From the NCBI GenBank assembly GCA_036867785.1, contig CP145421.1, positions 310,001 to 374,000 on the forward strand: a DNA stretch of 64,000 nucleotides. Reading direction: 5' to 3'. How positions within the stretch are numbered: the first letter of the stretch is position 1; each line of letters begins with the position of its first letter. Origin of the DNA: Plasmodiophora brassicae. Lineage: Eukaryota. The notes below the pieces were generated by a model that saw nothing but the letters and a program-made list of their open reading frames with translations, was not told the origin of the DNA and ran no database searches. Below are positions 24,507 through 30,247 of the stretch, one piece after another. The position numbers and the translations under genes are program-made.

Positions 24507-27068
24507 ATGCTGAAGCTGCTGCTCGTGAGCACCGTCACCGTCCGCTGCTGGAACGGCGTCAAGGGGCAGGCGACGTGCGACGACGACCCGTGCGCGTATC
24601 TCGGCAGGTCGTGCTGCCGCACGTACCCGTGCGTTAACGCCAGCTCGACAGCGCCTGTTGTCGAGCTGGCAGTCGTCATACCGTTCGACGTCGTCGGGGC
24701 TCAGATCGCCGTCCAACTTGCCGTCGACCATGTCAACGGCAAAGGGGTGCTCCTTCCCGGCACGGTGAAGCGCGTTCGCTGGCAGAGCTCACGAGGCACC
24801 CCGCTGGGCGCCATCAACGCGCTGGCCTGCACAGCGCTTACAAACGCCACGATGTTGACCGCTAAGGTTCCCATGGTGATCGGCCCGATGTACTCTAGCG
24901 AGGTCGTCTCCGGTATGGCCCAGATGGCCAGCTTCATAGGCCTGCCGGTCATCGCGCCTGTCGCTGGATCCACGACGCTCAACGATAAGGTGTGCTGCCC
25001 CTTGCGCTCGGCCATTATATTTGGGCGCTGATTCGCAGCCAGGTTCTATACCGGACCGTGTCAAGGATGATAAATGACGATAGCCTGGCCGCGTTGGCGA
25101 TGGTCCACATCGTGCAGCATTTTGGCTGGAACACGGTCGTCGTCGTCTATTCGTCCGATGCACAATCCGTATCAGTCACGAATATCATCGTCGAGCAGTG
25201 CAAGAACGTCGGCATTTCGATCCTGTTCGCGCTGATCATCCAGCCGAATACGCTCCAGGACACGATGCAGCGTATCAAGGACAGCAACGTGCGCATCGTG
25301 CTCGCTCCCGTCAGTCTGCCCGATGGGCCCAGCGTGTTCCAGGCTGTCCACGCCGCTGGCCTTGATTCCAGCCAGTTCGTCTGGGTGGGCGGGTCACAGG
25401 TACGACGTCGCAGAGCAATACGGACAGGTCGAAGCTCAGGGTTGGCACGGCCCAGGTGTCCCCCTACATCACAACGGTGGTCCCTGCGAACTTGTTCCGG
25501 ATCTGGCCATACATCAACGCGTCCTTGCCAGACGTGCGCGATGTCACGACGGCCTGGCAGGCGTTATACGCATCGAACCCGAACATTACGTTTGGCATTC
25601 CAGTATGTACTTCGAGTTGCTTCGTTACGGCCCCGGTCCTCAAACGCTTCCCAGAAACCCGTCGACATCCAGTTCAACGTCTACGATGCGGTCGTCTTTG
25701 TAAGTCGGCCCGAACGCTCCCGGATCAACTCGTAACCTTGGCCTGCGTAGGGGTTCACTGTCCTGCACGAAATGCATCAAGCGGGTCTGCAATGGAACCA
25801 GACGTCAATCTTGAACGGGATCCGTTCAACGACGATGATGGGTACAACTGGGCACGTCCAGCTGAACAGCATCGGGAACCGCCTGGGAACATATGCGGTG
25901 TGGCAGTGTCAGAGACCCGTGAACGCCGCCCCTTCGACAACGCCGGGCACTTGGTTGAATGTGGCAACGCTAGGCGTAACCGTGCAGTCGTGGCAGGATA
26001 CGGACACGCCTGTGAAGTGGGCGGATGGGCGCGTGACACCGCCTGTGCAATTGCCCGAGATCCGGTCAGCGCGCCTGAGCGCGTCCGCCGGTGTTATATT
26101 GGCCCTCGTTGTGTTCTCATCTCTGGGATCCATCATGGCTATTGCCCTCCTCGTGTTCAATGTCTACCATCGAAACCTGACCTTCATCAAGATGTCGTCA
26201 CCCACGATCAACAACGGCATCATCCTGGGAACCATCCTGTCCTTCGTCTACATCATCCTGTCAGCAGCGCAGGAGAGCACGAACGATGTCTCGCAGATCG
26301 CCCAGCTCTGCTCGTCTCGTGTCTCTGTCCTCTGCATCGGATTCACCATGGCGTTTGGCGGCCTGGCCGCTAAGACCTATCGAGTCAGCATGATCTTCTC
26401 GGCCAGTAAGGAGATGAAGGTAACACCTTATCGACGTGTGAGGCAACCATCAGCCTGATGGTTCACGGATTCAGACCGTCCTGATCAAGACGGCAGTGCT
26501 GGTTCGCTCCGTCCTATTTCTGCTGGTTGTGGACATTGTGATCCTGTCGGTTTGGCTTGCAACGGATCCCCTGCAGGCCGGTTTCGTCCAGTTGCCATCG
26601 CACGACGATTCCGACTCGGTTGTACAACCATACGTCATCCAGTGTTCATCGTCGAAAATCGATACGTTCCTGGCCGTCATCTACATCTACAAAGGCGCGC
26701 TCATGATTCTAGCCGCCGCGTTCGCCTATCAAACCAGGAACGTGGAGATCCCGGCGCTGAACGATTCTCGGCAGATCGGACTGTCCATCTTCACATGCAG
26801 CCTGATCGCCGTCATCGTCGTCCCTGTCCTCGGGTTCATCAGCGCCGACCAACCGTCATCGTCCTTCGTCCTGTCGAACATGTCCATCTTCTTCGCGTCC
26901 GCGGCAACGCTGACCACCCTGTTCGTCCCGAAAATCTCGGCGATCATGGACGGCTCGGCCCAGGACAAGACGAAACGCCGAGGGCCCCTCGTGCCGAAAG
27001 CGATCACTCCCGCCCCCGCGTCCGCAGCTTCCCACGCAACGGACACGAACCCCGTTGAGAGCAAGTGA
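24507..27068 (+). CDS. Class C (GABA-B/glutamate-like) GPCR, copy 2
   Basis: Paralogue of 14260-16857 with the same domain order and intron positions, including a 45-nt micro-exon. Confidence 0.9.
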
Positions 27069-27285
27069 TGACATAAATTATTACACCAGAAGCACGCCGA
27101 ATGTTCAGCGGGATGTAGCTCACAGTCGTTGCCGCCGAACAATTTGCAGCTCCCGGTCGTTGCCGCCGAACGCTGTGAGTGAAACGAGCTGGAACAGTTT
27201 CCGCCACAAAAACGCTCCTGGTCGTGACAGGCAGCAGCCAGCCAGCAGGTGGTGATGTCATTTTGACGATGCCGTCGTTATCGCT

Positions 27286-28887
27286 ATGAGGCTGGGGTTG
27301 GTGTGGCGGCGCGTCCTGGTCGGTCGGCGGGCGCCGCGCCGGTGGCTGTCGACGTTGCGGGACGAGGTCGCCGACAAGTTCGACCTGGTCGTGATCGGCA
27401 GCGGGCCCGCCGGGCAGAAATGCGCCATCAACGCGGCGAAGATGGGCAAACGGGTCGCCATCATCGACCGGGGCCAAATGATCGGTGGCGTCTGCGTCCA
27501 CACGGGGACGATCCCGAGCAAGACCTTCCGTGAGGCGGTCCTGTACCTGACTGGATACAGGCAGCGCGGGTTCTACGGGCGCGATCACCAGGAACGCGAT
27601 GAAATCCTGTTCACTGATATCCTGGATCGCGTCAAGAAAGTCGAAGGCTGGGAGACTGAAATCATCCTGTCGCAGCTGAAGCGGAATAACGTCGCTGTTA
27701 TCAAAGGAACGGCCTCGTTCATCGACGAGCACCGGATCCAGGTCGACCACGACGTTTCCGTTGGCCCCGATGAGGTCGTGCACGAGAACGCCGTGATCGA
27801 GTTCGACCATGCGCTGATCGCGACAGGAACCTATCCGGCGCGATCGCCGCTGTATCCGTTCGACTCGAAGTACGTCTTCGACAGCGACACGATCCTGTCG
27901 GTAACGCCTGGGCGCGTCCCGAAGAACATGATCGTGATCGGCAGCGGCGTCATCGCCATGGAGTACGCGTCGATGCTGAACGCGCTCCAGGGCTCTCGCG
28001 TTACGATCGTGGACAAGGCGCCGGGGTTCTTGTCATTTGTCGACCAGGAGATCCTGGATGTACTTCGGGATAGCATGCGCTCTAACGGGGCGACATTCCG
28101 TCTGGGTGAGGTCGTGACCGGCGTTGACGTCAAGGACGGCCGCGTTCGCGTCACGCTGGAAAGCAACAAAGTCGTGAAGGGCGACGCGCTTCTCTATGCA
28201 GTCGGGCGGCAGGGCAATACTGCCGGGCTCAACCTGGAGGCTGTCGGGATTCCCACGAGTTCCCGTGGGCTGATCTCCGTCAACGCAAGTTACCAGACGA
28301 GCGTGCCGCATATCTACGCGGCCGGTGATGTGATTGGGTTCCCGGCGCTTGCATCCGTCAGCCAGGAGCAGGGCCGCATCGCATCGAACCACATGTACAA
28401 CATCCCGGTCGACTCCACGCACGCCATGTTCCCGTATGGCATCTACACGATTCCCGAGATTTCCATGGTCGGACAGAACGAGGCGGAGCTGTCCAAGAAG
28501 AAGGTCGCCTACGAGACGGGCGTGGCCAAATTCGATGAACTTGCCAAAGGCCAGATGCTTGGCCTGAAGGTGTCGCCGTCATATGCGTGCTCTGCGCGTT
28601 GCTCATGGGGTGTGTCGTGCAGCATGGGTTCTTGAAGGTCATCTTCTGCCCACACACGCGCAAGCTTCTGGGCGTCCACGCGATCGGGGAGAACGCCACC
28701 GAGATCATCCACATTGGGCAAGTTGTCCTGACCATGGGTGGCACGATCGACTACTTCAGGGATCACGTCTTCAACTTCCCCAGCTTCGCCGAAGTACGCC
28801 CGTTGTCCTCCGCTGCCACATGTCGTATCTCACCCATGCTGCCAGGCATATCGAGTCGCTGCACTGGATGGCATCAACCGACTGTAG
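27286..28887 (+). CDS. sthA: Soluble pyridine nucleotide transhydrogenase (SthA/UdhA-like) with mitochondrial-type presequence; exons 27286-28569, 28623-28793, 28846-28887
   Basis: FDLVVIGSGPAGQK, GGVCVHTGTIPSKTFRE (single Cys, CxxxxT), PYGIYTIPEIS, C-terminus FNFPSFAEAYRVAALDGINRL. Two GT-AG introns restore the frame. Confidence 0.9.
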
Positions 28888-28992: not shown

Positions 28993-30247
28993 TTAACCCA
29001 CTTTCTTCTGCCGCCATATCGCGTCCATGCTGGACCGCAGGACTATCCTCGGGATATCGATCATGAATGTCTTTGGGATCGCAGTCGATGTCGAGACGAT
29101 CCACCAGCCCCCGCGGTTCACGGTGCTGACGGCGCTCACGACGCCGTTCACCACTCTCCCCAGCGTACCGCTGCCTGCACAGCAACCACTCCAGTCAATA
29201 GCGATATCGCAGACTGCCGTTCGGTCTACCCGGGGAGGACACCGGTTCTGCCTCGCTGCCCTCGGTGATGGCGACACCCATGACCGCTTCGACCAGCATC
29301 TCCTCCAGTTTGCGTCTCTCGACCTGCGAATCATGCAACTTGACCTGTGTGTCGATCAGCTCGCGCTCCAGGGCTCTGGTGCTCTGTGGCGAGGAGCGCT
29401 CCTCCATATCCATCATCAACCGCTCGATGCTGGCGACATTGGTCCCCAGGCTGGCCCGACATTCTTCGACCTTCCTCAGTATCCGATCGTTGTGCTCTCT
29501 ACACGATCAGTCGTCTCAGGATCCATCCCTGACACGCTTCTGCGTCCCCGTCACGCCGACCTGATTTCCTGGCCGAGCCGAACCAGTCGCTGATGCCTCA
29601 TACGTCGTGCAGCGTGAACCCGCCTGCCGGTCTGCAGTACAAGGCGCATCTCCGCCTGAACCCGACGTGTCTCGCTCTGGATTGCATGGGCCAGCTCAGC
29701 ATCTGCCGGTCTGGTGAATGCGCCGTTGGCCCACATGGGGCACATTACAACTGACTGGCCAACCGCGCGTCAATCAGATTGCCGTTCAGGTCGTGCAGGT
29801 CGTCGTCGTGAGCCACGGCAGCATTCGACCGCACCGTGGAGAACCCGTGCGCGATCGCCTCCTTCTGGGCAGCGAAATCCTTCGCGGCGGTGCTGAGACG
29901 ACGACGGACGCGCTCACGACGGGCGACATCCTACGATTTTCTGGGCGGGCTCGCTGTTCAACTTCTCCAGCATATCTGCAAGGCGATCGTGAACGGCGTC
30001 GAGGACGACGTCTTCGTCGAAATCGTCGTCGATCGTATCGAACGGCACATGGGCGACCTGGTACTGGAACAGGCCCGTCAGCTGACGAATCCCCGTCCGG
30101 ACGTCGATCACGCCCTTGGCGATCTGGCACATGACAGGTTAACGGAGGCGATTCGTCAGTGTGTCTGGCGGCGCGAACCGCGGCGCGATCCATGTTCAGG
30201 TCGGGCGTGCTGGAGGCCGCCCGCTCGACGTAGGGCGTCGCTCTCAT
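28993..30247 (-). CDS. Hypothetical coiled-coil protein (multi-exon)
   Basis: Exons join in frame over short introns (IAKGVIDVRTGIRQL.., DFAAQKEAIAHGF.., ALERELIDTQVKLHDSQ). No family recognised. Confidence 0.55.

Follow-up and report, generated by a model that had tools for sequence, protein, structure and literature searches.

How does a eukaryote come to carry the gene of an enzyme that textbooks treat as bacterial? Mitochondria are described there with the proton-coupled nicotinamide nucleotide transhydrogenase (NNT) only, and the soluble transhydrogenase (STH; the SthA or UdhA protein) as an enzyme of bacteria. The window analysed here, 64,000 nucleotides of the clubroot parasite Plasmodiophora brassicae (assembly GCA_036867785.1, contig CP145421.1, positions 310,001 to 374,000 of the forward strand), carries on its plus strand, at window positions 27286-28887, a three-exon gene, PBRA_007794, whose open reading frames (ORFs), joined by coordinates, encode an SthA-like protein of 498 residues. 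A preliminary description of this locus, made from the letters alone, had read it as a bacterial transhydrogenase acquired horizontally and put to work in mitochondria. Taking all the evidence together, we think it highly probable that PBRA_007794 is a spliced nuclear gene of the SthA family, with a probable mitochondrial leader, and that it belongs to an old eukaryotic clade.

The gene is organized as follows (all coordinates are those of the window):

27219..27285, plus strand: 5′ untranslated region, minimum extent (contigs start at 27219, 27226, 27223 and 27272 in runs X1, X2, X8 and X13)
27286..28569, plus strand: exon 1, codons 1-428, ATG at 27286 (translation P0001; Pfam domains Pyr_redox_2 and Pyr_redox)
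28570..28622, plus strand: intron 1, 53 nt, GT..AG, phase 0 (skipped in contigs of four of four runs)
28623..28793, plus strand: exon 2, codons 429-485 (57 residues), dimerisation domain (translation P0002; Pyr_redox_dim)
28794..28845, plus strand: intron 2, 52 nt, GT..AG, phase 0 (skipped in contigs of four of four runs)
28846..28887, plus strand: exon 3, codons 486-498 (13 residues) and the stop codon TAG (aligned with the C-terminus of the solved structure 9n4y)

The stretch is contained in 20 of the 24 sequencing runs listed for it, none of which is recorded as RNA, the kind of run being our guess; splicing was examined in the assembled contigs of four of them, from four studies (X1, X2, X8 and X13). 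In each of the four runs, one contig spans the gene, leaves out precisely the 53 nt and 52 nt of the two introns (GT..AG ends), and shows zero other differences. Since the spliced molecule is present in four independent data sets, both introns and transcription are confirmed: PBRA_007794 is transcribed, and the two spliceosomal introns that the preliminary description had placed near the 3′ end (both with a G+C content of 62%) are spliced out. The contigs begin 14-67 nt upstream of the ATG (27219-27272), which sets the minimum extent of the 5′ untranslated region, as the true transcript start cannot be fixed from contigs. At the other end, the spliced contigs of X1 and X2 (2707 and 2785 nt) extend more than 1 kb beyond the stop codon, and those of X8 and X13 stop 21-29 nt after it. 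The extended ends may represent a long 3′ untranslated region, or may reflect overlap with a transcript converging from downstream, where minus-strand ORFs occur at 28993-29506.

The 1497-nt spliced coding sequence translates, letter for letter, into a public protein of 498 residues (P0123). An exact look-up returned it as CEP00060.1 / SPR00179.1 / UniRef100_A0A0G4IXL0 / PBRA_007794 of Plasmodiophora brassicae, under the names 'NAD(P)(+) transhydrogenase (Si-specific)' (UniRef) and 'hypothetical protein PBRA_007794'. The gene, its exon structure and its correct name are, therefore, already public. Reading through intron 1 gives an ORF of 449 residues (P0003) with its stop inside the intron, which is also a gene call on a Logan contig. 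Codon 64 (27475-27477) encodes Gln in the window and in the NCBI protein (…DRGQMIGG…) and Arg in the Logan-derived P0003 ORF (…DRGRMIGG…), which suggests a polymorphism between strains.

Only the protein's resemblance to bacterial enzymes would speak for bacterial contamination or an assembly artefact. Against this reading stand the removal of both introns in the transcripts of all four runs, a G+C content that is even across the window (0.51-0.66), the presence of the same protein on a public contig of 1.12 Mb (1,123,131 bp), and the upstream neighbour, a gene for a class C G-protein-coupled receptor (GPCR):

24989..27068, plus strand: 3′ part of a class C GPCR-like gene (two ORFs; ANF_receptor, E = 2.1e-19; 7tm_3, E = 9.1e-26)

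This gene ends 218 bp before the SthA start codon and provides a eukaryotic genomic context. We reject contamination, whose probability we regard as negligible; the introns had been used as an argument against it in the preliminary description, and rightly so.

What does the gene encode? By every sequence criterion tested, the protein belongs to the SthA/UdhA family. The whole protein scores 584.6 bits (E = 1.2e-175) with the NCBIfam equivalog model of SthA, NF003585, whose curated cut-off is 465 bits; exon 1 alone reaches 463.1 bits and exon 2 alone 76.5 bits, the latter on profile positions 392-448. The next-best NCBIfam model, TIGR01350 (lipoamide dehydrogenase), gives 337.4 bits and falls short of its own cut-off (408.8). 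In Pfam, the protein shows the three domains of a class I pyridine nucleotide-disulfide oxidoreductase, Pyr_redox_2 (1.7e-56), Pyr_redox (6.5e-20) and Pyr_redox_dim (1.6e-13). Compared with solved structures, the protein is closest to 9n4y, a soluble pyridine nucleotide transhydrogenase (E = 2.2e-101; residues 31-498 aligned with 5-463); among lipoamide dehydrogenases the top structure is 2eq7, at E = 1e-60. Chance does not account for matches to SthA of this strength.

The cofactor-binding motifs and the residues that distinguish the families lie in four elements:

27397..27414, plus strand: FAD-binding GxGxxG motif, GSGPAG, residues 38-43 (invariant in 10 eukaryotic homologues; aligned with the same motif of 9n4y)
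27484..27522, plus strand: active-site loop GGVCVHTGTIPSK, residues 67-79, with one Cys (C70) and the second Cys replaced by Thr (alignment with solved structures)
27940..27957, plus strand: second dinucleotide-binding motif, GSGVIA, residues 219-224, predicted NAD(P)(H) site (Pfam Pyr_redox covers residues 215-292)
28770..28793, plus strand: FNFPSFAE, residues 478-485, in place of the His-x-His-Pro...Glu dyad of lipoamide dehydrogenase (alignment with solved structures)

The counterpart of the active-site loop is GGNCTHLGTIPSK in 9n4y and GGTCL(R/N)VGCIPSK in lipoamide dehydrogenases, so that GGVCVHTGT here is to be compared with GGNCTHLGT in 9n4y and GGTCLRVGC in 2eq7; the protein has Cys residues at positions 46, 70 and 437. 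Likewise, FNFPSFAE corresponds to FNYPTMAE in 9n4y and to HAHPSLSE (2eq7) or HAHPTMSE in lipoamide dehydrogenases. PBRA_007794 therefore has in common with bacterial SthA/UdhA (EC 1.6.1.1) the three-domain architecture, aligned over its full length with 9n4y, the single active-site Cys, the missing His of the His-Glu dyad, and the C-terminal ...AEAYRVAA..G.NRL, here AEAYRVAALDGINRL (residues 484-498, crossing the junction of exons 2 and 3). It differs from the bacterial enzymes in being encoded by a nuclear gene with two spliceosomal introns, in an Arg-rich leader of 29-32 residues, and in a short insertion around residues 155-175 that has a variable form in other eukaryotic members. With dihydrolipoamide dehydrogenase (E3, TIGR01350) it shares superfamily and fold; however, it has neither the CxxxxC disulfide nor the catalytic His. 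The architecture of NNT/PntAB (EC 1.6.1.2), the usual mitochondrial enzyme, is unrelated and proton-translocating, whereas PBRA_007794 is predicted to be FAD (flavin adenine dinucleotide)-dependent and without proton coupling; in the Pfam search of the protein we found no PNTB or membrane-domain match, and only a weak match to AlaDh_PNT_C at the Rossmann loop, no stretch of which passes alone. The SthA assignment of the preliminary description thus holds on model score, structure and both diagnostic residue changes, and the one-Cys CVHTGT loop, the C-terminal motif and the Arg-rich presequence that it had cited are all found in the spliced translation.

An SthA fold might nevertheless serve another job, that of an NAD(P)H:quinone or other NAD(P)H:acceptor oxidoreductase, or of a diaphorase. 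The protein is also matched by NF005883 (NAD(P)H-quinone dehydrogenase; 237.8 bits), the insertion around residues 155-175 varies within the eukaryotic clade relative to bacteria, and the activity of the eukaryotic members is a prediction from sequence. We nevertheless consider such a function improbable, as the score exceeds the SthA equivalog cut-off by 120 bits and lies far under the cut-offs of all other models, the alignment to a solved SthA is full-length with the diagnostic residues kept, and the protein falls within the SthA clade. In the careful tree described below, 65 SthA ingroup rows are separated from four E3-like paralogues of the same bacterial genomes, the lipoamide-dehydrogenase-type outgroup, by a branch with 100/100 support.

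If PBRA_007794 is an SthA, did it reach P. brassicae from a bacterium? Homologues are found in other eukaryotes. That of the second plasmodiophorid, Spongospora subterranea, is 73% identical to exon 1. Oomycete homologues are many, at 53-54% identity; they fall into two length classes, and one is fused to EF-hand domains. The paralogues measure about 500-530 and about 545-560 residues. Algal homologues come from Ectocarpus, Undpi1, Ascophyllum, Hapterophycus, Nannochloropsis oceanica and Chrysoparadoxa australica, and further ones from the EukProt entries Nk52 and Clim, the transcriptome entry comp18467, an MMETSP transcript and 'Rmarinus'. We take Nk52 to be Parvularia atlantis, Clim Corallochytrium limacisporum, Rmarinus Rhodelphis marinus, and Undpi1 Undaria pinnatifida. 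The eukaryotic SthA-type proteins of oomycetes, brown algae, Nannochloropsis and Spongospora, which carry automatic annotations, fall in the same clade as PBRA_007794 at 50-76% identity and have N-terminal extensions; seven of the eight scanned are above the SthA cut-off, the exception being a partial Ectocarpus model. The nearest bacterial SthA proteins are 52-57% identical in the genome scan, and up to 59% among metagenome proteins, and come from Acidobacteriota (Terriglobia, Thermoanaerobaculia), Gemmatimonadota, Binatota, Krumholzibacteriota and Planctomycetota. In the available text of the review PMC4518329, the biochemically studied STH enzymes come from Gammaproteobacteria; the closest bacterial sequences to PBRA_007794 come instead from Acidobacteriota, Gemmatimonadota and Binatota.

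We built three trees. The first (FastTree, 187 rows) combined chosen named eukaryotes, 18 unnamed long proteins, representatives of 440-620 residues, 18 of the 80 bacterial loci, and eight SthA and five lower-scoring paralogues from five bacterial genomes, with fragments and long fusions dropped. Every eukaryote-type row fell into one clade of 50 rows with an SH-like support of 99. The second, careful tree (IQ-TREE, LG+C20+F+G4 PMSF) used 69 rows hand-picked from the 187 and 499 columns, was rooted on the four E3-like paralogues, and has supports given as ultrafast bootstrap / SH-aLRT. Here 26 rows, including the plasmodiophorids, the oomycete paralogues, Ectocarpus and two opisthokonts, form the eukaryote-type clade (100/99), which is united at 100/97 with two unnamed representatives and 12 rows from Acidobacteriota, Gemmatimonadota, Binatota and Krumholzibacteriota. 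The third, quick tree (77 rows) was obtained from the second by removing 11 rows (the partial Ectocarpus model and ten unnamed bacterial-type representatives, half of which had been flagged there for long branches) and adding 19 algal and other homologues. The eukaryote-type clade grew to 43 rows (SH-aLRT 98), now with brown algae, Nannochloropsis, Chrysoparadoxa and Rhodelphis, and united with a bacterial clade of 14 rows at 99. The named rows of the trees include neither Alphaproteobacteria nor archaea, and the unnamed representatives may include some.

Within the eukaryote-type clade of the careful tree, P. brassicae and Spongospora pair with 100/100. The pair lies within a subclade of 10 rows (99/93) together with unnamed proteins that have long Ser/Pro-rich N-termini. 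A second subclade (98/96), of 16 rows, contains the two oomycete paralogues along with Ectocarpus, Nk52, Clim and relatives; the stramenopiles and the opisthokonts are each only weakly united (88/82 and 86/87). Oomycetes have two paralogues and an EF-hand fusion, whereas P. brassicae has one copy in the window and the plasmodiophorids sit in the other subclade. The quick tree places the ochrophyte algae with oomycete paralogue B (96) and does not resolve the stramenopile rows into a single group.

The sister of the plasmodiophorid pair consists of P0005-P0014, P0081, P0150, P0151, P0197, P0407 and P0411, encoded on ENA, JGI and Logan contigs of 12 to 235 kb. Most of these proteins have Ser/Pro/Ala-rich N-terminal regions of 60-210 residues. 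A protein-atlas search for the sister group returned bacterial SthA clusters only, and a metagenome scan with one of its members, P0014, just two distant relatives at 28-30% identity; the contig of P0014 itself was not among the matches.

A recent, lineage-specific transfer of a bacterial sthA into plasmodiophorids, with introns and leader added later, would account for an identity to the best bacterial SthA (52-59%) that is as high as that to the oomycete homologues; also, the closest named relatives beyond the plasmodiophorids are soil bacteria, and P. brassicae lives in soil. The trees, however, place the plasmodiophorid pair inside the eukaryote-type clade with the supports given above by all three methods (100/99 with IQ-TREE, 99 with FastTree, 98 in the quick tree). 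The pair alone is neither within nor beside any bacterial group, and the R-x-L-S-T motif of the leader is also present in the Corallochytrium and Phytophthora homologues. We therefore regard such a transfer as very improbable. The trees indicate that P. brassicae did not take up its SthA gene recently or privately from a bacterium, and that the gene belongs to one eukaryote-type clade with a single origin. Of the horizontal acquisition proposed in the preliminary description, a bacterial origin is upheld only for the base of this whole clade, which adjoins SthA of the Acidobacteriota type, and a special acquisition by P. brassicae does not hold. That the protein might instead group with a broadly distributed, vertically inherited eukaryotic clade had been named there as the outcome that would speak against acquisition; the broad clade is largely what the phylogeny with bacterial SthA and E3-like paralogues recovered, without establishing vertical descent.

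The pattern agrees with a single old acquisition, after which the gene was inherited, duplicated and in some lineages lost. It is compatible with inheritance and loss without establishing them, and some transfer of SthA between eukaryotes may have taken place as well. Three points weigh against this reading. Many members of the 'eukaryotic' clade are proteins without a name, from metagenomes or Logan, that are assigned to eukaryotes only by their N-terminal extensions and their position in the tree. P0006, P0012 and one oomycete model have no such extension. Finally, the plasmodiophorids do not group with the stramenopiles in the clade, unlike in the organismal phylogeny, so strictly vertical descent is not shown.

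Where might the enzyme work? The protein begins with MRLGLVWRRVLVGRRAPRRWLST, and its first residues resemble a targeting signal:

27286..27351, plus strand: predicted N-terminal targeting presequence, residues 1-22, MRLGLVWRRVLVGRRAPRRWLS (Arg content, profile start and R-x-L-S-T motif; the cleavage site is a prediction)

Residues 1-25 contain eight Arg and no Asp or Glu, and the leader has no uninterrupted hydrophobic stretch of the kind found in signal peptides. The bacterial core starts at residue 30, where position 5 of the NF003585 profile is aligned, so that the Arg-rich stretch noted in the preliminary description does lie beyond the bacterial SthA core. The extension is general in the clade. 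Of the 48 eukaryote-clade rows in which the FAD motif was matched (two further rows gave no match), 45 have it beginning at residue 27 or later, compared with five of 72 bacterial-type representatives, in which the median start is 7.5. The end of the leader reads R-W-L-S-T in P. brassicae, R-L-L-S-T in Spongospora, R-F-L-S-T in Clim (Corallochytrium) and R-R-L-S-T in Phytophthora fragariae; R19-W-L/S22 would fit the Arg-3 consensus of the processing peptidase.

Alternatively, the transhydrogenase might act outside mitochondria, in the cytosol if translation starts further downstream or the N-terminus stays uncleaved, or elsewhere in the cell. As a measure of an amphipathic helix, the maximum hydrophobic moment of the leader, 0.73 in an 11-residue window, is reached by 796 of 2000 shuffled sequences and so does not set the leader apart from them; and, as noted, three clade members do without the extension. 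Furthermore, the C-terminal -NRL is distantly reminiscent of a peroxisomal tripeptide. The same -NRL end, however, is present in bacterial SthA (L001, L004, L015, L077 and 9n4y), and is therefore a feature of the family and not a targeting signal. Given a leader that is rich in Arg, free of acidic residues and without a hydrophobic core of the signal-peptide type, as well as the presence of an extension in nearly all clade members, we find a location outside mitochondria unlikely, and mitochondrial import of PBRA_007794 reasonably likely from the features of the leader.

These results suggest how the enzyme could function. PBRA_007794 would be a homo-oligomeric FAD flavoprotein acting as a soluble, energy-independent pyridine nucleotide transhydrogenase (EC 1.6.1.1). 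FAD bound at GSGPAG would take a hydride from NADPH (or NADH) and hand it to NAD+ (or NADP+), with NADP(H) and NAD(H) binding at the second Rossmann domain, at GSGVIA. The transfer would proceed with neither a redox-active disulfide relay nor proton coupling. The Arg-rich leader of about 22 residues probably directs the enzyme to the mitochondrial matrix, where it would bring the NADPH and NADH pools into balance, most likely by converting surplus NADPH to NADH for respiration. Given NADP-dependent dehydrogenases in the matrix, NADPH could in this way be bled into the respiratory chain, and the reverse flux would be possible at high NADH. This is consistent with the available text of PMC4518329, according to which STH requires FAD and has the conversion of surplus NADPH to NADH as its accepted role. 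The same text gives the proton-coupled transhydrogenase as the type widespread in mitochondria and treats STH for bacteria only.

In our literature search we found no enzyme assay for any member of the eukaryotic clade, which counts against the functional part of this proposal, and no dedicated study of eukaryotic SthA-type enzymes, the supplements of genome and horizontal-gene-transfer papers lying outside the search. The eukaryotic SthA clade appears to be unstudied. The one trace is a row 'soluble pyridine nucleotide transhydrogenase' among the regulated proteins in the available part of a Nannochloropsis gaditana proteome table.

A more general proposal, which we put forward tentatively and regard as somewhat doubtful, is that there is an old clade of organelle-targeted SthA, derived from one Acidobacteriota-like donor that was not the mitochondrial ancestor, distributed patchily in at least four major groups (Rhizaria, stramenopiles, opisthokonts and Rhodelphis), and serving in their mitochondria, those of the obligate biotroph P. 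brassicae included, as an energy-independent NADPH/NADH valve that complements or replaces NNT. If this is true, a leader-bearing SthA lets some mitochondria equilibrate NADPH and NADH without a proton gradient, which would bear on the redox balance, lipid synthesis and oxidative-stress defence of P. brassicae and oomycetes. For PBRA_007794 itself the significance is modest, as it is an ordinary and uncharacterised representative of an enzyme family already known; more worth following is the leader-bearing clade across eukaryotes.

SthA-like domains were also observed within longer proteins. P0198 (757 residues), from a cluster of nine members that are all metagenomic, has its SthA-like domain at 301-755 (51% identity), with an N-terminal region of about 300 residues ahead of it. 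P0234, P0253, P0273, P0288, P0298, P0301 and P0308 (974-1499 residues) contain an SthA-like domain of 30-39% identity, some with two matched stretches, and may be fusions. In at least one Phytophthora protein, P0193 (746 residues), paralogue B is joined to EF-hand domains (PF13499, PF00036). According to the available text of PMC4518329, Ca2+ modulates the STH of Azotobacter and Pseudomonas, which makes a role of the EF-hand fusion in Ca2+ sensing suggestive.

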